Origin: an uncultured Nitrosopumilaceae archaeon
Lineage (GTDB): Archaea > Thermoproteota > Nitrososphaeria > Nitrososphaerales > Nitrosopumilaceae
Length of the DNA: 63,001 nucleotides
NCBI GenBank assembly: GCA_937897875.1
Contig: CALCPD010000008.1
Location: 1-63,001, forward strand
Direction: 5' to 3'
The translations under genes and the position numbers were made by a program. The notes below the pieces were generated by a model. It saw only the letters and a list, made by a program, of their open reading frames with translations. It ran no database searches and was not told where the DNA came from. Positions 2,574 to 63,001 of the stretch are shown here, one piece after another. Each line of letters starts with the position of its first letter. Within the stretch, counting starts at the first letter, position 1.

Positions 2574-2582
2574 TAGTGCTAA
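2574..2582 (-). promoter_or_regulatory. TTRGCACTA regulon box for the 1253-2524 gene
   Basis: TAGTGCTAA on + strand; 20-nt gap to TATA (TTATATAA, 2546-2553); 50 nt from start codon. Confidence 0.8.
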
Positions 2583-2616: not shown

Positions 2617-3381
2617 TTATTCCAGGTCTAGGTGAACATCAAAACTACCAAATGGTTCATTGATTCTAAAGGTATAACTCTTTGAAGAATCATACTCAAA
2701 TTCAGTTCCACCATATCCAATATTTGGACCAAATAAGATATTGAATTCTCTTGCATCACCAGGGTTCATTACGATTTGTCCACTAGTGAAATCCATTCCA
2801 GAATATTTGAATGCCTTTGAGCCATCCCAAACATCGTAGTTACAAATAGCTGGACTAGTACAGTTTATTGCTGTAATTTCAGAACTAGTATTTTCTGCAA
2901 GCATGCGGACTGACAATATTGGTTGTCCAGTTGGAGTGATTTCAAATTCATTTCCTTCAGAACCTACACCAAACCAATGATATGTAATTGGTCCTAGATC
3001 AAAGTGCTCAGCACCTGTTTTGTAGGTATGAACTAAAATCTCTTGTTTAATTGGTTTTTCACAATCAAGTCTTTTGTATGCTTTTACTATTTCTGAACAT
3101 TTTTCAAGTTCAGCCTCTAGTGAAGCAATAACAGGGTCATCGCTTGAAGATGCAGAGGATACAGATTTTTTGGATTCTTGTACTTGTGTAATACTCATGA
3201 TTCCTTCTTTGATCAAGAATTGAATTCCTTGAACAAATGAATCGTCATCAATCGTTCCTTCTGCCCACCAGCCTGCATTGTTCTTAACCCAAGCTGGAAC
3301 ATCAGCGTAAACTGATGATACACTTGAACCAACAAGCAGGAGTACAGCAATTGTAGAAATTGCAGTTAACACGGTTTTCAT
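2617..3381 (-). CDS. Secreted/surface protein, paralog of 1253-2524
   Basis: Signal peptide, WVKNNAGWWAEG module, shared CNYDVWDGSKAFKY...FGPNIGYGG domain. Confidence 0.8.
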   Translation of the reverse strand: MKTVLTAISTIAVLLLVGSSVSSVYADVPAWVKNNAGWWAEGTIDDDSFVQGIQFLIKEGIMSITQVQESKKSVSSASSSDDPVIASLEAELEKCSEIVKAYKRLDCEKPIKQEILVHTYKTGAEHFDLGPITYHWFGVGSEGNEFEITPTGQPILSVRMLAENTSSEITAINCTSPAICNYDVWDGSKAFKYSGMDFTSGQIVMNPGDAREFNILFGPNIGYGGTEFEYDSSKSYTFRINEPFGSFDVHLDLE

Positions 3382-3412: not shown

Positions 3413-3473
3413 TGGTGCTAAATTAAATTCTAGTGCTAAAATATTTTGAAATTATGAAAAAATATAGTGCTAA
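3413..3473 (-). promoter_or_regulatory. Three regulon boxes (variant 3413-3421; exact 3431-3439 and 3465-3473) in a divergent promoter region
   Basis: The 3431 box is 20 nt from TATA TTAAATAC (3403-3410) and 50 nt from the 3381 start; the 3465 box is about 21 nt before TTTATA at 3495. Confidence 0.8.
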
Positions 3474-3567: not shown

Positions 3568-4095
3568 ATGCAAGATTATCATAATGAATTAACTGAAAAA
3601 GAGGTTAAACAGTTTGTCAATGAAAGATTCTTAGAAGTAAAAAGTAGTAAAAAAATAAAAGAATTAGTTACATTTCAGGCCATGAACAAATATTTGATAA
3701 TGGCACACAATCAAGAGGAATTACGAGTATTAGGTAGAATTGTTGCCAGTAATAAAAAAAGAAAATTATCAGAAATAATGATTGATTATGAAAATAATCT
3801 AAAATTAGCTTTACAATCAAAGCCAACAATAAAAACACATAGTAATGTATTGATGCATTGTTTTGGATTTTTTTCCAAAGAATTTTCAGATTTAGAAAAA
3901 GAAAAGTTTTTTGATTTATTAACAGATTATAAAAATGAAAAAATAACAATCGGAAAAATACTTGCAGAAATTCACCCAATAGTATACAGGTTTAACAAAA
4001 CATACCTAGCAGGACAAACATATTTTTTACTATATTCAAATCCAGAACAAGGAAATATTTTTAAAATATTGGAAATCGATAAAACAAAAAAATAA
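3568..4095 (+). CDS. YbgA/DUF1722 family protein
   Basis: LVTFQAMNKYLIMAH...LGRIVA...HSNVLMHCFGFF...YLAGQTYF pattern typical of DUF1722. Confidence 0.8.
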   Translation: MQDYHNELTEKEVKQFVNERFLEVKSSKKIKELVTFQAMNKYLIMAHNQEELRVLGRIVASNKKRKLSEIMIDYENNLKLALQSKPTIKTHSNVLMHCFGFFSKEFSDLEKEKFFDLLTDYKNEKITIGKILAEIHPIVYRFNKTYLAGQTYFLLYSNPEQGNIFKILEIDKTKK

Positions 4096-4109: not shown

Positions 4110-5537
4110 TTAAGAAAAGTCAGTGTTGTATACAGGTCTAGCACCTTCAGGTACTTCAGCTGAAGCAGATTCAGATACAGGTTTTCCCCTAACTTGATAA
4201 ACCCTCACTTTATGAAATACATTGTGTGAGGAAAATATTGCCAATCCAGCAATTGCAGCACCAATGAAATTTCTGATAGTAATTTCCAAACTAGGCTCAG
4301 ATGCAACCAATGAGAGTTCAAATACGACATAAAAGTTATCAAATAACCAAAATGCCAGAGTCACCCAAGCAAGTATTCCACCTATCAAATAACCTAATCT
4401 GGCTTTCTGTTTTACAAATGAAATAGCAAACAAAATGGCAGCGTACCAAATTACGGAACCAATTAACCAAGGAATTTGCCAAACATCATTTCTATCATCC
4501 AACCAATAGTAAGTTGTGCCAATGAAAGCCATGGCACACAAAGTAATTAACAGAATTTTTTGATTCATTTTGTATGAAGTCTTTTCTCCTTCAGATTTAG
4601 AAATAGAATTGAAAGTTTTAGCCTCTTCTCTAGCAATTTGAATTGCTTGAGTCATATGTGCTAATTGGACAGGAATTAATTTTTGTGCAGAGTCATCTTT
4701 TACTACAGAATCATGTACCAGACTATCAACTAGAGGTCTTGCCAAAGAAGCTTTAACTGGAGTAACTAAATCAATCCAATACGAAGAAAGTCTAGGAGTT
4801 AAAAATGGAATTTGAATTACATTCAAGTTTCGATTAAGAATTGAAGAATACAATCTCATCAATTGTTCATATGTCATTACATCAGGTCCACCAATCTCTA
4901 GAATTTTTCCCGTAGTTTCAGGATTTTTCATTGAACCTATCAGATATTCAACAACGTTATCAACTGCAATTGGTTGTGTTTGAGATTTAACCCATTTTGG
5001 ACAAACCATTAGAGGTAATCTTTCAACAAGATATCTAAGCATAGCATAAGAGCCACCTTCAGCACCTACAATAACTGATGCTCTAATTTCAGTCACAGGA
5101 ATAGTTCCACTTGCCAAAATTTTCCCTACATCATGTCTACTTTTCATATGTTTTGATAATTCTAAACCTTCGTTAACCAAACCGCCTAGATAGATAATTC
5201 GCTTTACACCAGAATCAGTAGCAGCCTTTAAGAAATTTTGAGCCTGTTGTTTTTCTCTATTTGCAAATTCAGCCCAATCTTTTTTTGAACCTTCCATTGA
5301 ATGAAGCAAATAATATGCAGTTTCAATGCCTTCGGTAGCAGCAATTAAAGAGTTAACATCAAATGCATCGGCTTGAACACGTTTAACATTTTCAGTGTCA
5401 GGGTATTTTGATCGAGACATTGCAGTAACTGTAAATCCAGAATCAGTTAATTTTTTCAAAAGTTTTTTGCCAATAAAACCACTTGAACCAGTTACCAAAA
5501 TATCATATGGGCTGTTTTGAGAAACTGTGTCAGACAT
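4110..5537 (-). CDS. Atypical SDR NAD(P)-binding oxidoreductase (YbjT-like) with C-terminal membrane domain
   Basis: VTGSSGFIG Rossmann motif, YYLLHSM, IIYLGGL, TQPIAV; about 4 C-terminal TM helices. Confidence 0.8.
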   Translation of the reverse strand: MSDTVSQNSPYDILVTGSSGFIGKKLLKKLTDSGFTVTAMSRSKYPDTENVKRVQADAFDVNSLIAATEGIETAYYLLHSMEGSKKDWAEFANREKQQAQNFLKAATDSGVKRIIYLGGLVNEGLELSKHMKSRHDVGKILASGTIPVTEIRASVIVGAEGGSYAMLRYLVERLPLMVCPKWVKSQTQPIAVDNVVEYLIGSMKNPETTGKILEIGGPDVMTYEQLMRLYSSILNRNLNVIQIPFLTPRLSSYWIDLVTPVKASLARPLVDSLVHDSVVKDDSAQKLIPVQLAHMTQAIQIAREEAKTFNSISKSEGEKTSYKMNQKILLITLCAMAFIGTTYYWLDDRNDVWQIPWLIGSVIWYAAILFAISFVKQKARLGYLIGGILAWVTLAFWLFDNFYVVFELSLVASEPSLEITIRNFIGAAIAGLAIFSSHNVFHKVRVYQVRGKPVSESASAEVPEGARPVYNTDFS

Positions 5538-5539
5538 TG

Positions 5540-5917
5540 TTAAAATTCATCACTCAATTTCTTTAACTTGCGTAAATCGGTGATTTCTATATTACTACTA
5601 AGGGTAATGATTTTTGCAAGTTTAGGATTTGCTTTTTCGCCAAGTTTCAACACAGTATCACCACGTAATCTAACCTCAATAGTAGTTTTTTTCTGTGCCA
5701 AATCTTTTGCAAGTTCTTTAGCTTCAGAAAGTTGTTTTAAGAAACCAGGCATTTTTGTAATTTCAATTGGAATATCAATTATATCAATTATTTTTGTACT
5801 ACCGTCAACATGAAAATTCATTGTAGGGGAATCATTGCAAGTTATGCTTAATTTTCCGGTATCAAGATAAGATAAAAAATTAGCGGGAAGATCAAAGTTT
5901 TTCATTGTCATCCACAC
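5540..5917 (-). CDS. Hypothetical protein
   Basis: Tightly packed middle ORF of the 6112->4110 operon. Confidence 0.6.
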   Translation of the reverse strand: MWMTMKNFDLPANFLSYLDTGKLSITCNDSPTMNFHVDGSTKIIDIIDIPIEITKMPGFLKQLSEAKELAKDLAQKKTTIEVRLRGDTVLKLGEKANPKLAKIITLSSNIEITDLRKLKKLSDEF

Positions 5918-6112
5918 CTATTTTGTTGCTGTAATGGTTAGTTTACCGGTAAGGGAAACTGTACCTGTTGGGACAACTTGCTTGTCTTTCATAATCTTAC
6001 CAGCCATCTCAAGATTATCAAAATGATAAGTGATTGAGGCGTGTTTCTGTGTAAGTTTGTCAAAGATTTCAGCAAGAAGGTTAGCCCATTCTTGTTCTTC
6101 TGTACCTGCCAT
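5918..6112 (-). CDS. Small hypothetical protein, first gene of operon
   Basis: ATG with TATA (6134-6141) and regulon box upstream. Confidence 0.65.
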   Translation of the reverse strand: MAGTEEQEWANLLAEIFDKLTQKHASITYHFDNLEMAGKIMKDKQVVPTGTVSLTGKLTITATK

Positions 6113-6161: not shown

Positions 6162-6170
6162 TAGTGCTAA
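6162..6170 (-). promoter_or_regulatory. Regulon box for the 6112->4110 operon
   Basis: TAGTGCTAA; 20-nt gap to TTAAATAT (6134-6141); 50 nt to start. Confidence 0.85.
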
Positions 6171-6192: not shown

Positions 6193-6201
6193 TTGGCACT
6201 A
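6193..6201 (+). promoter_or_regulatory. Regulon box for the B12-binding regulator gene
   Basis: TTGGCACTA; 20-nt gap to TTAAATAT (6222-6229); 49 nt to start 6250. Confidence 0.85.
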
Positions 6202-6249
6202 GTACAAATGATTACCATTAGTTAAATATCTTAAAAGGATAAAAAATCA

Positions 6250-7104
6250 ATGGTCTACATAAGGGCTAAAAAAGTCAAATCCGATCAATATTTGTATTTA
6301 GTAAAAAGTGTCTGGGATTCTAAAAAAAGTACATCCAAACAAGAGATTGTCAAATATTTAGGAAAAGCATCAGAAGTAGTAAAGGATGACATACCATTAG
6401 AATTTAGAAATAATGCAAAAATTTTATCAGTTCTAGCATCATATAATCCTGAAGACATTCAAAAAAGAGAAGATGCAACAAAAAAATCAAAACAACAATT
6501 ATTTAAAAAATTGACAGACGGAAATATAGAAGAATGTATTAAAATTTACAAAAATTACGTTGAAATATTTAACATAGCAGATTTCTTTGATAGAATTTTA
6601 AGACCAGTGATGTCGAAAATAGGAGAAGATTGGGATAGTGGGAAATTACCAATTGCAACAGAGCATGTAGCAAGTAATGTTGCCCAAACACTAGTAAAAA
6701 TCATCATGGAGCAAGTTTCAGGTACTGGAAATAAAAAGAAAATAATGCTCTGTGTACCAGTTGGAGAAGAACATCATATAGGCTGTGATGTGCTTGAAAC
6801 TTATCTAACAATCAAGGGATTCAAAGTTTTCAATATGGGCACATCAATTCCAACTGAATCAATTATTGAGTTCATAGACATGAAAAAACCAGACATAGTT
6901 TTAATTTCAATTACTATACAAGATAATGTATTAGCTGGACAAAGATTGGCAAAGAGAATCAGAGAAAAAAGTAAAATTCCAATTTTAGTCGGAGGCTATG
7001 CATTGCAAATTGATAATCCACCAAAATTTGAAGGAAATGTAATTGGGGATGCTAGTTTGGAAGATATTCCAAAAATACTAAGAAAAATACCATTAACAAT
7101 TTAG
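6250..7104 (+). CDS. CarH/LitR-like cobalamin-binding (photoreceptor-type) protein with basic N-terminal beta-sheet domain
   Basis: W-x9-EH (WDSGKLPIATEH) in helix bundle, GEEHHIG B12 motif, Rossmann B12 domain (PDIVLIS, ILVGG). Confidence 0.85.
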   Translation: MVYIRAKKVKSDQYLYLVKSVWDSKKSTSKQEIVKYLGKASEVVKDDIPLEFRNNAKILSVLASYNPEDIQKREDATKKSKQQLFKKLTDGNIEECIKIYKNYVEIFNIADFFDRILRPVMSKIGEDWDSGKLPIATEHVASNVAQTLVKIIMEQVSGTGNKKKIMLCVPVGEEHHIGCDVLETYLTIKGFKVFNMGTSIPTESIIEFIDMKKPDIVLISITIQDNVLAGQRLAKRIREKSKIPILVGGYALQIDNPPKFEGNVIGDASLEDIPKILRKIPLTI

Positions 7105-8439
7105 AAAAGATTCAATTTTTGGAGTACATAGAATTGAACTATGTGCAGCAGAATCAGTCCCAATACCATAACTGACTGTAGAGTCTCCAACAAAAAACAA
7201 ACCATCAATTCCAGGAATTACATGAGGCATTTTAGACTTCCAAACTTTTCCAGGTTCCTTTACTACAGATTCAACTAATTTCCATGCCATTGGACGTTCC
7301 CAAAGTAATGAAGAAGTAAATTTTGGATAAATTGAAGATATTTCTTGCTTCATTTTACTTACAATATTTTTAATTTTTTCAGAATCTTCGGTTTCAGAAG
7401 GAAGCACAGGAGTCCCTGCAATAATCAAATGCTCACCAGAAGGAGAAACAGATGGGGTAATATTAGAAATGAAAAAAATACCCTTAGTAACATAATCATC
7501 ACCCACAGGAAAAACAACTTGACGAGTATCTATTTGGGAATTTAATGCAAAATGTACTTCAACAACAGATGTTGTTTTATTTAATTTATCAATTTTTTGT
7601 ACAAATTTTCTGTCAATTACATTTTCTTCAAATAATTGATTTAATGCAGTATATGCAGGATATGAAATTACAACAGAATTTGTAGGGATGAGTTTTTCAG
7701 AATTTGAGGAGTCATTTACAATAACTCCCGTTACTTTAGAATTTTCAATGACTACTTTCTTCACAGATTGTTTCATTTGAATTTCGCCACCTTTCTCTAA
7801 AATATAGTCTCCAAGAACATTACAAATAGAATCATAACCACCGCCATCAGGGTATGCAAACTCACTGGTTCCACCCTTAAACGGATTAGCTCTAATGATG
7901 GTTCTAGCAAATTCACCTAGTGAAATGTGATCAGCAGTATCAGCAAAAGCTAACATGCATACTGCTTCAAAAAATGCGTTTGTGTCAGCATCCAAGTTAT
8001 CGGTAATTTTGGTTAGTGGTATTTCATCCCATAATTCAGTTTTTTCAATAGAGGAAAATGCCAATGGCAATAATAATTTAAGAAGTCTAACTCTACTTTT
8101 GAATGGTATCAAAGATAGTTTCAGTAAATCAATCATACCTTTAGGATAAATATGAAATCCAGTTGTAGCATAGAATGCAATATCATCGACTTTTGCAAGC
8201 TTTAATCTAGATTCAATTCCCAAATTTTTTAAAATAGTGAAAATGGCAGATTTTTTGTAAAAAGGCATTATATGAAATCCGTTATCAAGAACATGATTTC
8301 GATACTTCATCGATGCGGTTCTGCCACCCAATTTACCAGATTTTTCCAATACCATTACTTTGTGACCTTTATTTGCTAGCAAAGCACCAGTTGTCAAACC
8401 ACCTACTCCTGCGCCAATAATGACTGTAGGAGAAGACAT
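7093..8439 (-). CDS. FAD-dependent oxidoreductase, phytoene desaturase (CrtI)/amine oxidase superfamily
   Basis: IIGAGVGGL...LEK...LGGR, DNGFH, YPDGG, C-terminal GLFFVGDS. Confidence 0.8.
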   Translation of the reverse strand: MSSPTVIIGAGVGGLTTGALLANKGHKVMVLEKSGKLGGRTASMKYRNHVLDNGFHIMPFYKKSAIFTILKNLGIESRLKLAKVDDIAFYATTGFHIYPKGMIDLLKLSLIPFKSRVRLLKLLLPLAFSSIEKTELWDEIPLTKITDNLDADTNAFFEAVCMLAFADTADHISLGEFARTIIRANPFKGGTSEFAYPDGGGYDSICNVLGDYILEKGGEIQMKQSVKKVVIENSKVTGVIVNDSSNSEKLIPTNSVVISYPAYTALNQLFEENVIDRKFVQKIDKLNKTTSVVEVHFALNSQIDTRQVVFPVGDDYVTKGIFFISNITPSVSPSGEHLIIAGTPVLPSETEDSEKIKNIVSKMKQEISSIYPKFTSSLLWERPMAWKLVESVVKEPGKVWKSKMPHVIPGIDGLFFVGDSTVSYGIGTDSAAHSSILCTPKIESFLNC

Positions 8440-8487: not shown

Positions 8488-8496
8488 TAGTGCTAA
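8488..8496 (-). promoter_or_regulatory. Regulon box for the CrtI-family gene
   Basis: TAGTGCTAA; 20-nt gap to TTAAATAG (8460-8467); 49 nt to start. Confidence 0.85.
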
Positions 8497-8508: not shown

Positions 8509-8949
8509 TTAAATTGATTTAGAATAGGATTCAGCACAAACAATGAATTCAGACATTACAGAATTCATTCTTTTTAATAAATAAATTTTCAAAAATGGAA
8601 TTAATCGTAAAATACCATTAAGTTTTAAATCCACAATAATTAAAATTTCAGTTCCAATTGAATTTGAATTATAAGTTTCAATAAAGGAAGTACCTTTAGC
8701 AGGACCACTTAAAATAAACACTTTGTGGATATTGGGTTCAATAATTACATGTTTAGTTTTGATGTCTATTTTTTTACCTAAAAAAATAATTGATTCTAAT
8801 ACAATTTTTTCATTTGAAGAATCACTAATTATTTTTAATGATTTAAAATATTTTGGCATGATTTTATGAAAATTTTCCACATCAGTACTAATTTGAAATA
8901 TTTTATCAGGTTCAAGAGTACTTTTTTGAATTAGATTAAAACTACTCAT
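8509..8949 (-). CDS. SRPBCC/polyketide cyclase-like (START-fold) protein
   Basis: IFQISTDVENFHKIMP...SGPAKG pattern, about 146 aa. Confidence 0.7.
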   Translation of the reverse strand: MSSFNLIQKSTLEPDKIFQISTDVENFHKIMPKYFKSLKIISDSSNEKIVLESIIFLGKKIDIKTKHVIIEPNIHKVFILSGPAKGTSFIETYNSNSIGTEILIIVDLKLNGILRLIPFLKIYLLKRMNSVMSEFIVCAESYSKSI

Positions 8950-9304
8950 TAGTGATCTTTTTAGATAAATAATCCCATAAATTTGATTTTATCACTTTCA
9001 TATCAGGATAAAATTTTTGTATTTCAAAACATAGATTGACCAAAGATTGTTTTACAGCATCAGTTTTAGCAGGATCAGTTAAAGGGTATAATCGAATTGT
9101 TGTTTTTTCTTTACTAGTCATCAGATGAATAAAGAATTCATGGTGGGAATCATCAATTACAACTGCAGACAATAAGGCATTACTACCTCGCGTATCAATA
9201 TACATATCTTGAATTTTAATTAAAGGAGATTTTTGAAATATGGGCTTAAACAAAATTGAAAAATCAAAAAGATTCAAACTTTTATCCAATACAATATGAG
9301 GCAT
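8942..9304 (-). CDS. Hypothetical protein, co-transcribed with the SRPBCC gene
   Basis: ATG at 9304; 8-nt overlap with the downstream gene. Confidence 0.65.
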   Translation of the reverse strand: MPHIVLDKSLNLFDFSILFKPIFQKSPLIKIQDMYIDTRGSNALLSAVVIDDSHHEFFIHLMTSKEKTTIRLYPLTDPAKTDAVKQSLVNLCFEIQKFYPDMKVIKSNLWDYLSKKITNE

Positions 9305-9352
9305 CAACTATTTAGAAAAATAATTTATAAAAACATAATTAAATAAAATTCA

Positions 9353-9428
9353 TAGTGCCAATTAATTTTAAACATTCTAGTGGTAAAAAAATAGTAATTA
9401 AGCTTTATTTTTGACCATTTTAGCACTA
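9353..9428. promoter_or_regulatory. Divergent promoter with regulon boxes at 9353-9361 (-), 9378-9386 (variant) and 9420-9428 (+)
   Basis: Both exact boxes are 49 nt from their starts (9304 and 9477) and 20 nt from TATA elements (9325-9332 and 9449-9456). Confidence 0.85.
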
Positions 9429-9476: not shown

Positions 9477-10388
9477 ATGTTAACTGAATTAATTCATCAA
9501 AAAAATTGTAAAAAACATGAAATGATTACAGATATGCACACAGGAGAAATTGCATGCAGTAGTTGTGGAATTGTTTCATTAGAACCAATATTAGATCTGG
9601 GTTCCGAAACTGCAGGTCTTAATGCAAACGATTATCAAAATAATTCAAGAGTAGGATCCAAAAGATCACTAAAAATGATTGACATGGGACTATCCACGCT
9701 AATTGAAGCTAAAGACAAGGATGTAACAGGAAAATCATTATCAATTGAAAATCGAAGAATGTTCTACAGATTAAGAATGTGGGACAGAAACAGTCGTTCT
9801 GCAGTTACTTCAAAATCATTTCAAAAAGCATTTACATTACTTGATGCAATTAGTTCAAAATTAGGACTACCAGAATCAGTAGTTGAAGAGAGTGCATATT
9901 TGTTTAGAAAAATTGCAGCAAGAAAAATTCTTGCAGGTAGATCAACAGCAGCTATGTTATCTGCAACAATTTACATAACATGCAGAATCACAGATACACC
10001 AAGAACATTACAAGATATTTCAGATGCAGGTAACATTAAGAAAAAAGTGCTACAAAGGACATATAGATTTCTTGCAAAAGAAATGGATCTCAGTCCCGAA
10101 GCATACACTCCATCAGAATTTGTTACCAGAATAGCAAAAGGATTGTCTATCTCTGAAAAAACACAAAGATTGACGTTCAAAATATTGGATTTATGTGCAA
10201 AAAAGCATGTTTCAACAAGTAAAAATCCAATGGCAATGGCTGCAGCAGCCATACATTTGGCATCAACAATCAATGCTGAGAAAGTGTCTCAATTGAAGAT
10301 ATCAAAGATTTCAGGTATCAGCGCAGTAACAATCAGAGAAAGAAGAAAAGAGATTATAGAAAAAGTTGGAGAAATAGAAATTGGGTAG
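9477..10388 (+). CDS. tfb: Alternative transcription initiation factor IIB paralog
   Basis: Zn ribbon (CKKH...CSSCG), B-reader/linker (GLST, RLRMWD), two cyclin repeats; divergent C-terminal helix ISAVTIRERRK. Confidence 0.92.
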   Translation: MLTELIHQKNCKKHEMITDMHTGEIACSSCGIVSLEPILDLGSETAGLNANDYQNNSRVGSKRSLKMIDMGLSTLIEAKDKDVTGKSLSIENRRMFYRLRMWDRNSRSAVTSKSFQKAFTLLDAISSKLGLPESVVEESAYLFRKIAARKILAGRSTAAMLSATIYITCRITDTPRTLQDISDAGNIKKKVLQRTYRFLAKEMDLSPEAYTPSEFVTRIAKGLSISEKTQRLTFKILDLCAKKHVSTSKNPMAMAAAAIHLASTINAEKVSQLKISKISGISAVTIRERRKEIIEKVGEIEIG

Positions 10389-11306: not shown

Positions 11307-11315
11307 TTAGCACTA
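11307..11315 (+). promoter_or_regulatory. Regulon box upstream of the PPOX-family gene
   Basis: TTAGCACTA in divergent intergenic region; 69 nt to ATG 11384, which has a GGTGA RBS-like site (probably a leadered transcript). Confidence 0.7.
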
Positions 11316-11383: not shown

Positions 11384-11806
11384 ATGCAATATATAGAAAG
11401 AGAGTTAGCTCCAGATACAAAGATACCAATTAGAATAGGATTCATTAAACCAAATGGAGCACCTTCAATTATTTCATTATGGTATATCGATATTGATGGA
11501 AAAATTTATTGTGCAACACAAAAAACTGCAAAAATCCTCCAGTATTTAGAAAATCAACCAATATGTGGTTTTGAAATTGCAGCAGATAAACCACCTTACA
11601 AAGGTTCACGGGGAGAAGGTAAAGTTAAACTCATACCATCAAAAGGATCAGAAATATTAAAAATTTTAATTAAAAAATATTTAGGAGATAAAGAATCAAC
11701 ATTATCTAAATTTCTATTAAGTCATTGTAAAAATGAAATTGCCATAGAAATTACACCTACAAAAATATTTCATTACGACTATTCAAAACGAATGAAGGGA
11801 ATTTAA
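11384..11806 (+). CDS. Pyridoxamine 5'-phosphate oxidase-like (split-barrel flavin/F420-binding) protein
   Basis: RIGF..NGAP.I.SLWY...IYCATQ..AK...L...P.CGFEI...PYKG.RG.G pattern. Confidence 0.75.
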   Translation: MQYIERELAPDTKIPIRIGFIKPNGAPSIISLWYIDIDGKIYCATQKTAKILQYLENQPICGFEIAADKPPYKGSRGEGKVKLIPSKGSEILKILIKKYLGDKESTLSKFLLSHCKNEIAIEITPTKIFHYDYSKRMKGI

Positions 11807-11809
11807 AAA

Positions 11810-11947
11810 ATGAATGATGATGGATGTCCCACGTGTGGTTCAAAAAATTATGGAACTGTAGAAATGAAGAAAAATAGTGAAGGACTAGTTGCTTGGAAAA
11901 AACAATGTTATAATTGTAAAAAATTTTGGCATGGTTCAGACTTTTAG
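11810..11947 (+). CDS. 45-aa zinc-ribbon protein (not in ORF track)
   Basis: MNDDGCPTCGSK...KQCYNCKKFWHGSDF; starts 3 nt after the PPOX stop. Confidence 0.65.
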   Translation: MNDDGCPTCGSKNYGTVEMKKNSEGLVAWKKQCYNCKKFWHGSDF

Positions 11948-11971
11948 CACTATAATCTATATTTAGCACTA
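11944..11971 (+). promoter_or_regulatory. Tandem regulon boxes (11944-11952, 11963-11971) for the 12002 gene
   Basis: First box is 20 nt from TTTAAATA (11973-11980) and 50 nt from ATG; second box abuts the TATA. Confidence 0.85.
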
Positions 11972-12001: not shown

Positions 12002-12322
12002 ATGTTATCACAACAGACAGAACAACAAAAACCACCAGTATTGAAATTTTTAACAATAATTTCAATTGCTACAGCAGTAATCTTGGTGTTTACAATCACA
12101 CCATGGAACATAATCCCAACATCAATTACTGAAGATGTCAAAGTAATTGCTACAACTGAATTAGGTTGTGTGGGGGAATCAGTTTTAGGACACTCAGTTG
12201 TTGTTGAAAACTGCTCAGCTAAAGTGGGGGACACAGTATCGGCCACATTTTACGTTCCAGCATTAGAACAAAATGGATATTATGACAAAATTCATCAAAA
12301 ACTAGAAAAGGTCACCCCTTAA
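12002..12322 (+). CDS. Membrane-anchored hypothetical protein
   Basis: N-terminal TM helix, Cys pair in a small beta-rich domain. Confidence 0.7.
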   Translation: MLSQQTEQQKPPVLKFLTIISIATAVILVFTITPWNIIPTSITEDVKVIATTELGCVGESVLGHSVVVENCSAKVGDTVSATFYVPALEQNGYYDKIHQKLEKVTP

Positions 12323-47090: not shown

Positions 47091-47492
47091 TCAAAAATTT
47101 TGAGATTCAACAAATTCAACGATTGAAAGGATCTCCCCCATTTCTACAAGATGACCATAACTTGTATTTTTTGCATTTTTCATAGGTTTGTTACTAACAC
47201 TAATGAAAAGCATATTGCCATCAGAAAGTGGAATAGTAATTCTTTTAATTTTTGCATAGGATGTTATTGAATACATGCCATTACCAATATGTTCAACAGC
47301 AGAACTATAGTTATCCCATTCAGATCTTGAACGAGACATAGTATTCTTTGTTTTTTCTATAGGAACAATGTTTGAAACACCATTTCTTTGGCTATTCCAT
47401 AATAATTGACCACTTCCATCAGATACAGCTGCAAAGCGAACAGATTCATTAAAATCCATTATCATATTCAAAAGTTGTTCGTATTTATCCAT
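47091..47492 (-). CDS. Roadblock/profilin-like small domain protein, paralog 1
   Basis: VRFAAVSD.SG.LLW...G...Y.ITSY.KIKRITIPL. Confidence 0.65.
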   Translation of the reverse strand: MDKYEQLLNMIMDFNESVRFAAVSDGSGQLLWNSQRNGVSNIVPIEKTKNTMSRSRSEWDNYSSAVEHIGNGMYSITSYAKIKRITIPLSDGNMLFISVSNKPMKNAKNTSYGHLVEMGEILSIVEFVESQNF

Positions 47493-47542
47493 CAATTGTC
47501 TAAAGAGATTTTACTTAATATAATATTCGAAATTTAAAATTC

Positions 47543-47551
47543 TAGTGCCAA
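47543..47551 (-). promoter_or_regulatory. Regulon box for the 47091-47492 gene
   Basis: TAGTGCCAA; about 19 nt from TTATATTA (47516-47523); 51 nt from ATG. Confidence 0.8.
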
Positions 47552-48031: not shown

Positions 48032-48040
48032 TTGGCACTA
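48032..48040 (+). promoter_or_regulatory. Regulon box for the DICT-photolyase operon
   Basis: TTGGCACTA; 20-nt gap to TTTATAAC (48061); 51 nt to ATG 48091. Confidence 0.85.
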
Positions 48041-48090
48041 GATTTTCTCAATAAAATTAATTTATAACTGATTTCATAATCATATACATC

Positions 48091-48645
48091 ATGGATAACC
48101 CCTATGGAGATTTTGTACATGAAGTGTGGGAAGAATTCCCACAACTAGCAGAATGGCATAATTTAGATAATGACATTTTACCAATTTGGAAACTAGAGCA
48201 ATTCATTGAAGCTGGTTATCATAATTTTGATGCAGACAGAAAACCACTTTATCATCTCAGTAGAATGATTGAAAATTATGCACAAGAGCACAAGGAACCA
48301 CTGTTAGCTACATTTGAAAAAATTGCAAAATTCTCTTATGTTAAAGAAAGATATCAGAAGATGGTCAAGGATATGCCAAAAGTGTGGATAATTGCGGATT
48401 TTGATGACGAGGTAATACCTACGGATGTAGTAATACCAAACTCAGAATTTCTAAGCTGCAGTAATACCAATTTAGCAAATGTATGGACAGTTATCACAAG
48501 AGGACCATATGGACCATTTGGCTTAATCGCAGAAGAATATGAGGATGGTAAATTTAGAGGATTCTTCACACTTAATTCCAATGTATGCAGATACGCACTA
48601 AAAGTAATGGGAACAACATTGGACTCCAAATTTGATATTCAATAA
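48091..48645 (+). CDS. Stand-alone DICT sensory domain protein 1
   Basis: LYHLSRMIENYA...LLATFE...ERY...W.VI..GP..LIAE matches the DICT pattern. Confidence 0.7.
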   Translation: MDNPYGDFVHEVWEEFPQLAEWHNLDNDILPIWKLEQFIEAGYHNFDADRKPLYHLSRMIENYAQEHKEPLLATFEKIAKFSYVKERYQKMVKDMPKVWIIADFDDEVIPTDVVIPNSEFLSCSNTNLANVWTVITRGPYGPFGLIAEEYEDGKFRGFFTLNSNVCRYALKVMGTTLDSKFDIQ

Positions 48646-48667
48646 TTTTTAGAAATAAAAATACCTA

Positions 48668-50014
48668 ATGTATAAAAAATCATTATTCATTTTCCGTAGA
48701 GATTTAAGATTAGAAGATAACATAGGGTTGATTGAATCACTGCAAAATTCTATAGAAGTAATTCCATGTTTTATCTATGATGAAAATCTAATTAATAATT
48801 TAAAAGATTCAAAATTTAGATGGAATTTTCTTAATGAATCATTAACAGATTTAGATGTAGAATTAAAGAAAAAAGGAACAAGATTACAATTACTAGAAGG
48901 TAAGCCAGAGAAAGTAATAGAGAAAATAATTAAAAAACATAAAGTGGAAGCAATATTTTTAAATACAGATTTTACAAATTATTCACAAAAACGAGATGAG
49001 AAAATATATCAAACTTGTAAGAAAAATGAAATATCATTTCATAGTACATTAGACTTTTTACTTCATAATCCAAATGAAATAAAAACAAATGAAGGGTCAC
49101 CATACACAATTTATTCATTTTTCTATAAAAAAGCTAAGCAATTTCCAATCAGAAAGATTTCTAAAAATATTAAAAAGAATTATTCAAAAGAAATTATTTC
49201 TAACAGCGAAATAAGAAAAAATGAAATAAAAAATAATGAAATAATTGGTGGGCGAAAAGAGGCATTAAAAATTTTAAAACATCTAGACAAATTCAGAAAT
49301 TATGATAAAGTAAGAGATTTTCCAGAATTAAATCAAACAACAATGCTTGCAGCACATAACAAATTTGGAACAGTATCAATAAGAGAAGTTCATAACAAAA
49401 TAAAAGAAGAATTAGGCGTAGATCACACAATAATGGGGGAGATATACTGGCGAGAATTTTTCAGCTATATTTTATTCCATTTTCCATATTCACAAAAAAA
49501 ATCATTTAGAAAAAAATTTCAAAAAATACCATGGGCAAAATCAGAAGAATTATTCAAAAAATGGTGTGAAGGGAAAACAGGCTTTCCTATTGTTGATGCA
49601 GGAATGAGACAATTAAACAAAACAGGGTTCATGCACAATAGAGTCAGAATGATTGTGGCATCATTTCTAACAAAAGATCTACATATGGACTGGAAATTAG
49701 GGGAAAAATATTTTGGAGAAAAATTAATTGATTATGATCCTGCAGTTAATTCTGGAAATTGGCAATGGGCAGCGTCAACAGGATGTGATTCAGTACCATA
49801 TTTTCGAATTTTTAATCCGTGGAGACAACAAGAAAGATTTGATTTAGATTGTAAGTATATTAAAAAATGGGTTCCAGAATTGCAAAAAATGAAATCAAAA
49901 ACTATCCATGAATTATGGAAAGAATTTCCAGGTAATTTAGAGTATCCAAAACCAATACTAATACATAAAATCGAAGCAGATAAAACAAAATTAATTTTTA
50001 AGTTACAAAAATAA
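48668..50014 (+). CDS. phr: Deoxyribodipyrimidine photolyase (class I CPD photolyase/cryptochrome family)
   Basis: FRRDLRLEDN, WREFF, TGFPIVDAGMRQL..TGFMHNRVRM, DYDPAVNSGNWQW, FRIFNP. Confidence 0.95.
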   Translation: MYKKSLFIFRRDLRLEDNIGLIESLQNSIEVIPCFIYDENLINNLKDSKFRWNFLNESLTDLDVELKKKGTRLQLLEGKPEKVIEKIIKKHKVEAIFLNTDFTNYSQKRDEKIYQTCKKNEISFHSTLDFLLHNPNEIKTNEGSPYTIYSFFYKKAKQFPIRKISKNIKKNYSKEIISNSEIRKNEIKNNEIIGGRKEALKILKHLDKFRNYDKVRDFPELNQTTMLAAHNKFGTVSIREVHNKIKEELGVDHTIMGEIYWREFFSYILFHFPYSQKKSFRKKFQKIPWAKSEELFKKWCEGKTGFPIVDAGMRQLNKTGFMHNRVRMIVASFLTKDLHMDWKLGEKYFGEKLIDYDPAVNSGNWQWAASTGCDSVPYFRIFNPWRQQERFDLDCKYIKKWVPELQKMKSKTIHELWKEFPGNLEYPKPILIHKIEADKTKLIFKLQK

Positions 50015-50024
50015 ATGATTATAG

Positions 50025-50033
50025 TTGGCACTA
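50025..50033 (+). promoter_or_regulatory. Regulon box for DICT protein 2
   Basis: TTGGCACTA; 21 nt to TTATATAC (50055); 50 nt to ATG 50083. Confidence 0.85.
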
Positions 50034-50082
50034 TTTTAAAAAATTATCAGTGGATTATATACTCAGAGAAAAATAATCTAGT

Positions 50083-50634
50083 ATGACGGAACATTTTGTA
50101 AGTTTCATCGATGACATATGGAACAAATTTCCAAAATTTAAAGAAGTTAAAAATACAGACCTTACTGATCACAACATTCTGTGGACATTAGAAGAATACA
50201 GAAAAATAAATTATGTGAATTTTCAAACAGGTAAAAAGGAATTATACAGATTAAGCATATTAATAGAAAATTATGCAGTTAAACACAACACTCCATTATT
50301 AGCAACTTTTGAAACTGAAGCAAGATACAAGTATGTAGAAGAAAGATACAGAGAAATCCTAGATAAAATTTCAAAGGCATGGATAATTGGTAATTTTAAT
50401 AATCCAGATTTAGCTCCACACCCACCACCATCTGCAGAAGTAGTTAGTTGTGATGGAACAAATATTTCCCCAATGTGGATTGTAGTTACAAAAGGAGAAA
50501 ACGGACCATTCGGATTAGTAGCTGAAGATCTAGGAGACAGTGAATACAGAGGTTTCTTTACATCAAATACAAGTATTTTAGAAAAAGTAATTGAAGATAT
50601 TAACGAGCAATTAAAAATTAAAATTACAATGTAA
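50083..50634 (+). CDS. Stand-alone DICT sensory domain protein 2
   Basis: Clear paralog of 48091-48645 (LLATFE, GPFGL.AE, RGFFT). Confidence 0.7.
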   Translation: MTEHFVSFIDDIWNKFPKFKEVKNTDLTDHNILWTLEEYRKINYVNFQTGKKELYRLSILIENYAVKHNTPLLATFETEARYKYVEERYREILDKISKAWIIGNFNNPDLAPHPPPSAEVVSCDGTNISPMWIVVTKGENGPFGLVAEDLGDSEYRGFFTSNTSILEKVIEDINEQLKIKITM

Positions 50635-62507: not shown

Positions 62508-62769
62508 TAAAATAGATCAGAAAAAAGAAAAAGAAAACGTACAAAAAAAGATGGAAAAATTTTAAAATAATCAATTGTATGCGTAAAATTTTGAAAAATA
62601 GACAGACGATCAAAACAATGTAAGAAAAAAAGAAAAGTAAACACAAAAGAAAAAGAAAATTACGATCAAAAATTATTTACATCAATAAAATTACTTCACT
62701 AATTGTAATCAAATTGTGTAAATTTTTTTAGTTTAACCACTGAAAAACAATGAAAATATCGATTTTAGC

Positions 62770-63001
62770 ATGGCTACAAAAAGAAAAGCTGCAACTAAAC
62801 GTAGATCAACTACAAAAGCAGCTCCAAAAAGAAAAGCTACTAAAAAAACTGCAACTAGAAAAGCAGCTCCAAAGAGAAAAGCAGCTCCAAAGAGAAAGGC
62901 AGCAGCAAAACGCAAAGCCGCTCCAAAGAGAAAAACTGCAGCAAAACGCAAAGCAGCTCCAAAGAGAAAAGCAGCTCCAAAGAGAAAGGCAGCAGCAAAA
63001 C
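62770..63001 (+). CDS. Lys/Ala/Arg-rich histone H1-like protein (3'-truncated by window)
   Basis: MATKRKAATKRRSTTKAAPKRKATKK...(KRKAAP)n, open to window end. Confidence 0.75.
   Translation, partial: MATKRKAATKRRSTTKAAPKRKATKKTATRKAAPKRKAAPKRKAAAKRKAAPKRKTAAKRKAAPKRKAAPKRKAAAK

Follow-up and report, generated by a model that had tools for sequence, protein, structure and literature searches.

A candidate cobalamin-dependent light regulator with a transposase-type N-terminal head and a TATA-abutting operator in Nitrosopumilaceae archaea

Introduction

The DNA analyzed here is a stretch of 63,001 nucleotides (the window), contig C8 of the 1.22-Mb, 93% complete genome (G000) of an uncultured Nitrosopumilaceae archaeon, and our subject is the gene at 6250..7104 on its forward strand. 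This gene encodes P0001, a protein of 284 amino acids in which a small beta-meander head is followed by a helical linker and by a cobalamin module of the type found in the bacterial photoreceptor CarH. The named relatives, 88-92% identical, come from Nitrosopumilus and marine group I records. With a probability that we put at roughly two in three, P0001 would be a repressor dependent on adenosylcobalamin (AdoCbl), bound to DNA in the dark and released by light. On comparative sequence grounds it is likely to work like CarH; its head is new and its operator is archaeal. The operator box occurs in the gene's own promoter and in UV-repair and stress promoters, and carotenoid-photolyase operons of the Thermoplasmatota carry a near-identical box; the system is therefore likely to be an archaeal sun-protection switch.

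The light limitation of surface-ocean nitrification is a long-running question (PMC4177112). Photolyases of ammonia-oxidizing archaea (AOA) have been described, and the portions of the two reports available to us name no B12 regulator, nor any other sensor or regulator (PMC4839502, PMC13591554). Our literature search brought up no report of a CarH-like regulator in archaea or of a TTRGCACTA operator; a prior mention is possible, as IMG automatically labels some family members "light-induced transcriptional regulator." Archaea are not mentioned in the text and one supplement of the SignatureFinder study (PMC11796333), and a paper on diel sponge metatranscriptomes has no passage on Nitrosopumilus.

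Results and Discussion

A CarH-like sensor module

Two Pfam models match P0001 above their cut-offs, the four-helix cap B12-binding_2 (aa 82-152; 6493..6705, + strand) and the Rossmann-type B12-binding domain (aa 165-255; 6742..7014, + strand), after which the protein ends with no fused globin-like biliverdin domain. The cap carries the adenosyl-capping signature G125xxW128-x9-E138H139 (6622..6666, + strand; W-x9-EH segment GEDWDSGKLPIATEH), in which residue 129 is Asp. The Rossmann domain holds, at aa 173-249, a complete E173xH175x2G178x41S220xT222x25GG249 motif (the CarH pattern being ExHx2Gx41Sx[TV]x22-27GG) together with G197xxxP201. The W-x9-EH and E-x-H elements pointed out in the first-pass annotation of this DNA are thus both present, the second as part of the longer motif. 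W-x9-EH is kept in all 80 orthologs from GTDB, and 79 of these keep both main motifs. The two define CarH homologs, whereas MetH is without W-x9-EH (PMC8156234), and P0001 also displays the experimentally validated light signature GxxW/EH/GxxH/GxxxP (PMC11796333) in the form G125xxW128, E138H139, G172xxH175 and G197xxxP201.

P0001 is nevertheless no member of the CarH family proper, since the MerR domain is absent and the NCBIfam CarH model reaches only 54 bits against a cut-off of 400, matching only from residue 79. Its N-terminus was matched by no Pfam model, those of the MerR family included. The models of the corrinoid proteins also fall far below their cut-offs (TIGR02370, 55 versus 215 bits; MtbC, 41 versus 350), and the sources label some family members "methanogenic corrinoid protein MtbC1." The AlphaFold model of the whole protein (pLDDT 82.5) finds its top Foldseek matches in the B12 domains of Thermus thermophilus CarH (TtCarH) and of the photocobilins, and a profile of the family scores the solved photoreceptors (8jbs, 8j2x/8j2w, 3whp and 5c8d) above methionine synthase; with the single P0001 sequence the photoreceptors and the corrinoid proteins of methionine synthase and the methyltransferases are not clearly separated, their matches being of similar strength. 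These rankings lend comparative support to the earlier suggestion of a CarH-like AdoCbl sensor, a module that the sequence evidence supports for P0001. The cofactor should be available, since the genome encodes a methylmalonyl-CoA mutase and a cobalamin adenosyltransferase.

The further claim that these motifs provide for bis-His switching did not survive. The bis-His state employs the His that adjoins the Trp (PMC8156234). This position is D129 in P0001, and it is His in none of the 80 orthologs and in only 2 of 37 distant representatives; a bis-His photoswitch is consequently unsupported. The H132A mutant of TtCarH cannot monomerize, and light-responsive proteins with Arg, Gln or Tyr at the bis-His position exist (PMC11796333). 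When TtCarH is aligned with P0001, GERH and GPDTP of the former correspond to GEEH and GTSIP of the latter, so that the Arg/Asp dimer pair (PMC9304148) is replaced by E174/S199. With neither the His after the Trp nor the Arg/Asp pair retained, the light state must differ from that of TtCarH.

The operator in the regulator's own promoter

Upstream of the gene, at 6193..6220 on the + strand, the box TTRGCACTA occurs as TTGGCACTA (6193-6201) and, after 10 nt, a second half-site, TTACCATTA (6212-6220), completes a direct repeat of 19 bp; the TATA-like box TTAAATAT (6222..6229, + strand) begins one base past the second half-site. The position of the B recognition element (BRE) in archaeal promoters is well established, and the second half-site lies where we would expect the BRE to be. 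A spacing of 19 bp dominates among the half-sites of 30 upstream regions (our own and those of 29 orthologs), with 44 pairs against 8 for the next spacing, and this dominance rules out a reading of the box as a palindrome centered on CTAG. The arrangement TTRGCACTA-N10-TTRGCAYTA precedes 28 of the 29 orthologs, with a TATA-like box one base later in 27, and a box stands 42-56 nt before the regulator gene in 72 of 80 loci. The TTRGCACTA box is, therefore, one half of a 19-bp direct repeat that abuts the TATA box. The idea that P0001 is autoregulated through a box of its own is borne out insofar as the box is in its promoter and is conserved before its orthologs; what had been described as the box is only half of the site.

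The window contains 14 copies of TTRGCACTA where 0.58 would be expected (100 shuffles, the largest count being 2), and the genome as a whole has 36, of which these 14 are part. The distance from box to TTWWAW is 20-21 nt for 10 of the 14, and for 11 of the 14 a start codon follows at 45-50 nt. Across the genome, 14 of 56 TTRSCACTA sites have a TATA box at this geometry, from which the regulon can be predicted to be a small set of about 14 promoters. With so few sites, and with the gene not found in 19 of the 61 genomes of the family, the term "master regulator" applied by the first-pass annotation is too strong. Two sites with box and TATA elsewhere in this genome, C66:800 (− strand) and C26:15659 (+ strand), have no open reading frame (ORF) of at least 50 aa directly behind them and possibly serve small ORFs or RNAs; sites that lack an ORF behind them also persist in some genomes without the gene.

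The box follows the gene across genomes

A search of the phylum found a full-length ortholog in 41 of the 61 Nitrosopumilaceae genomes, a fragment in one (G059) and none in 19. Gene-carrying genomes have on average 5.8 box+TATA sites (at least 3 in 30 of the 41), compared with 0.58 and a maximum of 2 in the 19 gene-less ones; reversed-pattern controls gave 0.9 and 1.4, and the variable gap lets one site count twice. The contrast holds within genera: 4-14 sites in 16 of 17 gene-carrying genomes versus 0-2 in 9 gene-less ones for genus g1, and 5-11 in 4 versus 1-2 in 3 for genus g4. Kin genomes are not independent, and for this reason we attach no p-value to these counts. Photolyase genes are similarly distributed (12 of 41 versus 0 of 19), so that the proposed co-occurrence of gene, motif and photolyase is indeed seen across the family, and the motif is largely missing from genomes that lack the gene, although up to two box+TATA sites remain there. 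One gene-carrying genome, G176, is without a single box+TATA site, but a variant of the repeat stands one gene farther upstream, before the gene that precedes the regulator. In G059 the gene is a frameshifted and truncated copy (L213:10070-10451) that has lost the B12 module and kept its operator intact.

Beyond this family, a profile search located the regulator in 97 of 251 genomes of the order, distributed over five families and not found, for example, in family f67 (0 of 47); named members include Ca. Nitrosocaldus and Thermoplasmatota. The exact repeat is present in 17 of 26 further gene-carrying genomes from four families as against 0 of 5 gene-less ones (control, 0 of 31), and it directly precedes the gene even in a locus of 59% GC.

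Carotenoid-photolyase operons in a second archaeal lineage

The strongest evidence comes from homologs outside the AOA. A metagenome scan with distant members yielded 80 loci, 50 of them low-GC marine loci whose neighboring genes fall into clusters with proteins that bear the names Marine Group III euryarchaeote or Ca. Thermoplasmatota; these are redundant samples of few lineages, and the lineage is independent of the AOA. GxxW-x9-EH is kept in all 50 regulators, one of which aligns with P0001 over 265 aa, the head included, at 29% identity. A crtI-family desaturase, scoring above the cut-off, adjoins the regulator in 46 of the 50 loci and a phytoene-synthase-like gene (crtB) in 42, the latter with family scores below the cut-off and named phytoene synthase in the sources; a photolyase is found in 9. 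Judged by gene content, this crtI/crtB/photolyase context appears to be the classic CarH regulon, and it supports the existence, in another lineage of archaea, of a regulon that protects against light. The operon order TIGR01777-crtI-regulator-crtB(-phr) is seen in L142, L156, L175, L195 and 46 similar loci. Gene callers appear to truncate the head of these regulators, since the start appears to be an ATA that overlaps the end of crtI.

The box is shared as well. TAGGCAC[TC]A stands 10-11 nt before the TATA box in 48 of the 50 loci (0.2 in shuffles), and for 52 of 75 such boxes a second GCACTA follows 31-33 bp on, past the TATA, so that TAGGCACTA boxes flank it. In a high-GC clade (L133-L170, GC 59-71%) 7 of the 13 promoters of the regulator itself hold the box core in inverted orientation (0.15 would be expected), 21-bp repeats precede fasciclin and other neighbors, and TspO is nearby in L145. 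The common head, operator core and carotenoid-photolyase operon fit a CarH-like light regulator and not a basal factor or a corrinoid carrier.

These geometries bear on the possibility that the same AdoCbl light sensor and box serve activation, or both activation and repression: an upstream half-site 20 nt before the TATA box would recruit transcription factor B (TFB), in light or in dark, and repression would be confined to promoters in which the BRE lies under a second half-site. The fixed distance of 20-21 nt in 10 of the 14 window boxes speaks for it, as does the mostly degenerate second half. Archaeal activators such as Ptr2 bind just upstream of the BRE, a geometry that the position of the upstream site resembles, and with the bis-His histidine and the Arg/Asp pair missing, the light state may stay oligomeric. 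Yet the strongest and best conserved sites, those before the regulator itself (28 of 29), lie over the BRE position, the Thermoplasmatota box lies 10-11 nt from the TATA with its second copy downstream, and the own-promoter box of the high-GC clade is inverted. Such variable geometry is better accommodated by steric blocking than by a fixed contact with TFB, and we regard an activator or dual regulator as unlikely.

The N-terminal head

The first 39 residues (6250..6366, + strand) form the predicted DNA-binding head. Residues 1-45 have a net charge of +7, and aa 1-39 are modelled as three antiparallel beta-strands (E2-9, E12-23 and E28-39; pLDDT about 88) followed by short helices. The head is the best conserved part of the protein (80% mean column identity), and Y3, R5, K7, Y14, Y16, W22, K35 and Y36 are invariant in 16 heads. 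Accordingly, the description of the N-terminus as a basic, aromatic beta-strand module standing in place of the MerR helix-turn-helix was accurate. Its charge, its conserved aromatic residues and the correlation of gene and operator predict that it binds DNA.

The resemblance to transposases that had been proposed for the head has turned out to be homology to the N-terminus of IS1634-type enzymes. Among 1.84 billion representatives, a profile of aa 1-62 matched 367 proteins; 44 of the 150 matches listed are at least 250 aa long, and 37 of these 44 carry both B12 signatures. One match, P0248, is an IS1634 transposase (NF033559, 215 bits, cut-off 100). In all 19 of the transposases retrieved as relatives of P0248 the best position of the head profile is the N-terminus, at 19.8 bits or more in 14 (reversed control, −1.8). 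P0001 itself matches neither model of the DDE catalytic domain (PF01609 and NF033559), and our literature search on the IS1634 N-terminus returned no documentation of a DNA-binding role for the segment. The head is also fused to HNH-like nuclease domains and occurs in a 362-aa protein without an NCBIfam match and in unknowns of ~170 aa (P0246, P0247, P0250, P0257 and others). It is a mobile, promiscuous module for which Pfam has no model. Beta-sheet DNA-binding folds are known from AP2, the Tn916 integrase and WRKY/GCM; set beside such folds, the 62-aa head model attains a best VIA Z of 3.9, a result that does not show a new fold. The structural examination suggested earlier thus gave a three-strand model and no solved counterpart. 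An Atlas search with the head retrieved unnamed clusters only, at 0.81-0.82, and searches with aa 1-45 against longer proteins and against plasmids retrieved nothing.

The missing structural match to a DNA-binding fold is one reason to ask if the box might belong to another factor, such as the boxed TFB paralog with a special BRE. P0001 would then simply be one of the regulated proteins, perhaps a corrinoid carrier. The second half-site at the BRE position, the boxes before the TFB paralog in 30 of the 62 loci that hold a TFB-like gene, and the MtbC1 names in the sources all agree with this. Against it, the box accompanies the protein into another phylum, in which the spacing to the TATA is different (10-11 versus 20-21 nt), the Thermoplasmatota loci inspected hold no TFB, the corrinoid-protein models stay far below their cut-offs, and the basic, aromatic head is what evolution has conserved most. 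We consider this explanation very improbable.

The boxed genes and their link to light

Neighbor counts were taken across 80 named loci. Besides the regulator, the box precedes an exported-looking protein in 53 of 59 cases, a flavin oxidoreductase in 49 of 54 and, as noted, the TFB gene in about half. The exported-looking proteins, characterized by WxKNNAGWW, are the most consistently boxed neighbors. In the window, one at 1253-2524 has a box at 2574..2582 (− strand); a second at 2617-3381, without a Pfam or NCBIfam match, has two within 3431..3473 (− strand), at 3431-3439 (20 nt before the TATA) and 3465-3473, and the divergent DUF1722 gene 3568-4095 uses the same intergenic region. Divergently from the regulator, a box at 6162..6170 (− strand), 20 nt before its TATA, heads the genes 5918-6112, 5540-5917 and 4110-5537, the last NAD(P)-binding and epimerase-like. 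The flavin oxidoreductase 7093-8439, with weak matches to the HpnE/CrtI families that are all below cut-off, is preceded by a box at 8488..8496 (− strand) with a second half-site (TTAGCCTCA). Further boxes stand at 9353..9361 (− strand) before 8942-9307 and 8509-8949, at 9420..9428 (+ strand) before the TFB paralog 9477-10388, and at 47543..47551 (− strand) before 47091-47495. The box at 11307..11315 (+ strand), 68 nt before the weakly PPOX-like gene 11384-11806, is off the 20-nt-to-TATA geometry, and a perfect direct repeat, TTAGCACTA-N10-TTAGCACTA, at 11944..11971 (+ strand) precedes 12002-12322.

A photolyase unit extends over 48032..50014 (+ strand): a box (48032-48040), a DICT-like gene (48091-48645) and a DNA photolyase (48668-50014). 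It is followed at 50025..50634 (+ strand) by a box (50025-50033) and a second DICT-like gene (50083-50634). Photolyases (PF03441) of gene-carrying genomes often lie within a few kb of the regulator, and 7 of 12 photolyase loci have the box in the roughly 700 nt upstream that were covered. Before a second photolyase of this genome (C40:247-1602) the contig extends for 246 nt, and no box lies there. DICT-like proteins are encoded in 12 of 41 gene-carrying versus 0 of 19 gene-less genomes of the family. This genome has three such stand-alone paralogs, each boxed, the third at C87:14128-14691; the proteins have an invariant Cys in a CxxT motif, and their match to the DICT family is weak (6 of 15 members, best E 0.0056). 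A reading of these genes as a "split photocobilin" was rejected, since the bilin domain of photocobilins is globin-like and the DICT-like proteins have no solved relative. A pyrimidine-dimer glycosylase adjoins the homologs in L081, L176 and L210. This genome also has a boxed RudS-type gene (2-thiouracil desulfurase + DUF1722; C6:18636-19601, − strand), of a family reported in light-responsive operons (PMC11417400). No crtB was found beside the AOA regulator gene. Parts of the gene are represented among the contigs of four metatranscriptome runs, which carry no level, strand, start site or light condition; they are not used as evidence.

The protein might instead bind the box as a sensor of cobalamin or redox status that undergoes no light switching in vivo, its regulon responding to oxidative stress or to B12 supply. 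The missing bis-His histidine, the many gene-carrying genomes without a photolyase and the abundance of oxidoreductases and unknown exported proteins among the boxed genes would suit such a sensor, and B12-independent, redox-linked relatives of CarH such as CarA exist (PMC8156234). But none of the 80 orthologs and none of the 50 Thermoplasmatota regulators has lost W-x9-EH, and its loss marks a separate clade of paralogs; moreover, instead of genes of cobalamin synthesis or uptake, the neighborhood offers crtI/crtB, photolyase, pyrimidine-dimer glycosylase, RudS, TspO and fasciclin. We think it quite unlikely that light plays no part.

The paralog just alluded to is represented in the window by P0002 (52156..53016, − strand), 35% identical to P0001, with the same head and ExH, no W-x9-EH and no box upstream. 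A second regulator copy is seen in one other of the 61 family genomes (G334). Copies without W-x9-EH form one clade (SH-aLRT 93) in a quick, midpoint-rooted tree without a bacterial outgroup, and we therefore claim no direction of transfer. By analogy, P0002 is possibly a light-blind, CarA-like partner. At the end of the window, 62733-63001 is part of a Lys/Ala/Arg-rich repetitive ORF (histone H1-like repeats) that runs off the contig.

A proposed mechanism and the evidence against it

In the light-released repressor that we favor, AdoCbl would bind base-off on His175 and W128, E138 and H139 would cap its adenosyl group. The dark holo-form would be an oligomer, most simply a dimer with two heads on two half-sites; a dimeric CarH exists (PMC9304148). 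TFB and the TATA-binding protein would be blocked where the second half-site covers the BRE position and, in marine Thermoplasmatota, where two boxes flank the TATA. Visible light would break the Co-C bond, the cap would move and DNA binding would be lost with no bis-His adduct formed. Photolyase, DICT-like proteins, the RudS-type eraser of tRNA thiouridine, flavin and NAD oxidoreductases, the TFB paralog and the exported proteins would then be derepressed, while the autoregulated gene would supply the fresh apo-protein that resets the switch.

Several observations weigh against this scheme. Besides the lost histidine and dimer pair already described, most promoters in the window have one good half-site, located 20 nt before the TATA, where an activator could also sit. 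No solved DNA-binding domain matches the head in fold, and Foldseek gave nothing at E<=0.001 in PDB or BFVD. One genome (G122) carries the gene and has 0 box+TATA sites, 4 boxes persist in G059 with its broken gene, and as many as 2 remain in genomes without the gene. The gene is present in 39 of 74 genomes of family f3, and 29 of the 41 gene-carrying Nitrosopumilaceae genomes have no PF03441 photolyase. In the clade L125-L132 no box stands directly before the gene, and the homolog follows a gene for an MMPL-family transporter. Lastly, the relatedness of the genomes and metagenome loci makes all such counts overstate their independence.

We also offer, tentatively and as something that may well go too far, a broader view: an archaea-specific family of B12 photoreceptor transcription factors in the Nitrososphaerota and Thermoplasmatota, in which a CarH sensor would be fused to a domesticated IS1634 head and would act on one GCACTA operator without bis-His chemistry. 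In surface-dwelling Nitrosopumilus the signal might be relayed through the boxed TFB, with the light-blind paralog competing for the same sites.

Significance and comparison with known systems

The analysis supplies a protein, an operator and a list of genes, all open to testing in cultured strains that carry the gene and in others that lack it. Should the proposal be true, B12 photoreception would extend to archaeal TATA/BRE transcription, and the AOA would have their first direct light sensor, which would also provide a gene-level predictor of sunlight-tolerant lineages. It would further mean a small DNA-binding module that is new and whose target sequence is known, a transposase domain domesticated as the head of a regulator, and, for optogenetics, a compact green-light switch with a different photochemistry.

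The nearest known system is CarH, or class I LitR, from Thermus thermophilus (PDB 5C8A/5C8D/5C8E/5C8F and 3WHP), Myxococcus and Bacillus. Both have the module of four-helix cap and Rossmann domain with W-x9-EH and ExH...GG. The placing of the effector domain at the N-terminus, a direct-repeat operator on the core promoter and autoregulation are further likenesses (the binding being predicted here), as are the crtI/crtB/photolyase neighbors of the Thermoplasmatota homologs and the boxed DICT-phr unit of this window. They differ in that a 39-aa beta-meander replaces the MerR winged helix, the promoters are archaeal with TATA/BRE, half-sites of 9 bp, spaced by 19 bp here and by 20-21 or 33 bp in other clades, take the place of three or four 11-bp repeats, no His follows the Trp and E/S occupies the Arg/Asp dimer pair. 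The best matches of the family profile among solved structures are CtMerR (PDB 8JBS/8JBT) and the photocobilin SasPcob (8J2W/8J2X), which are light-responsive AdoCbl domains and, like P0001, are without the bis-His histidine; CtMerR has a MerR head and the photocobilins a globin-like biliverdin domain, and neither has the present head or an archaeal operator. The corrinoid proteins of methionine synthase and the methyltransferases (the MetH cap, MtbC, MtaC) have the same two-subdomain B12 fold but, unlike P0001, neither W-x9-EH nor an N-terminal head. The N-terminus of the IS1634-family transposases (P0248 and 18 relatives) is homologous to aa 1-39, whereas P0001 is without the DDE domain or any sign of a mobile element. 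Finally, P0002 is analogous to CarA of Myxococcus xanthus, the B12-independent paralog of CarH, in that it keeps ExH, has lost W-x9-EH and has the head of its partner; it differs from CarA in having no box before it.

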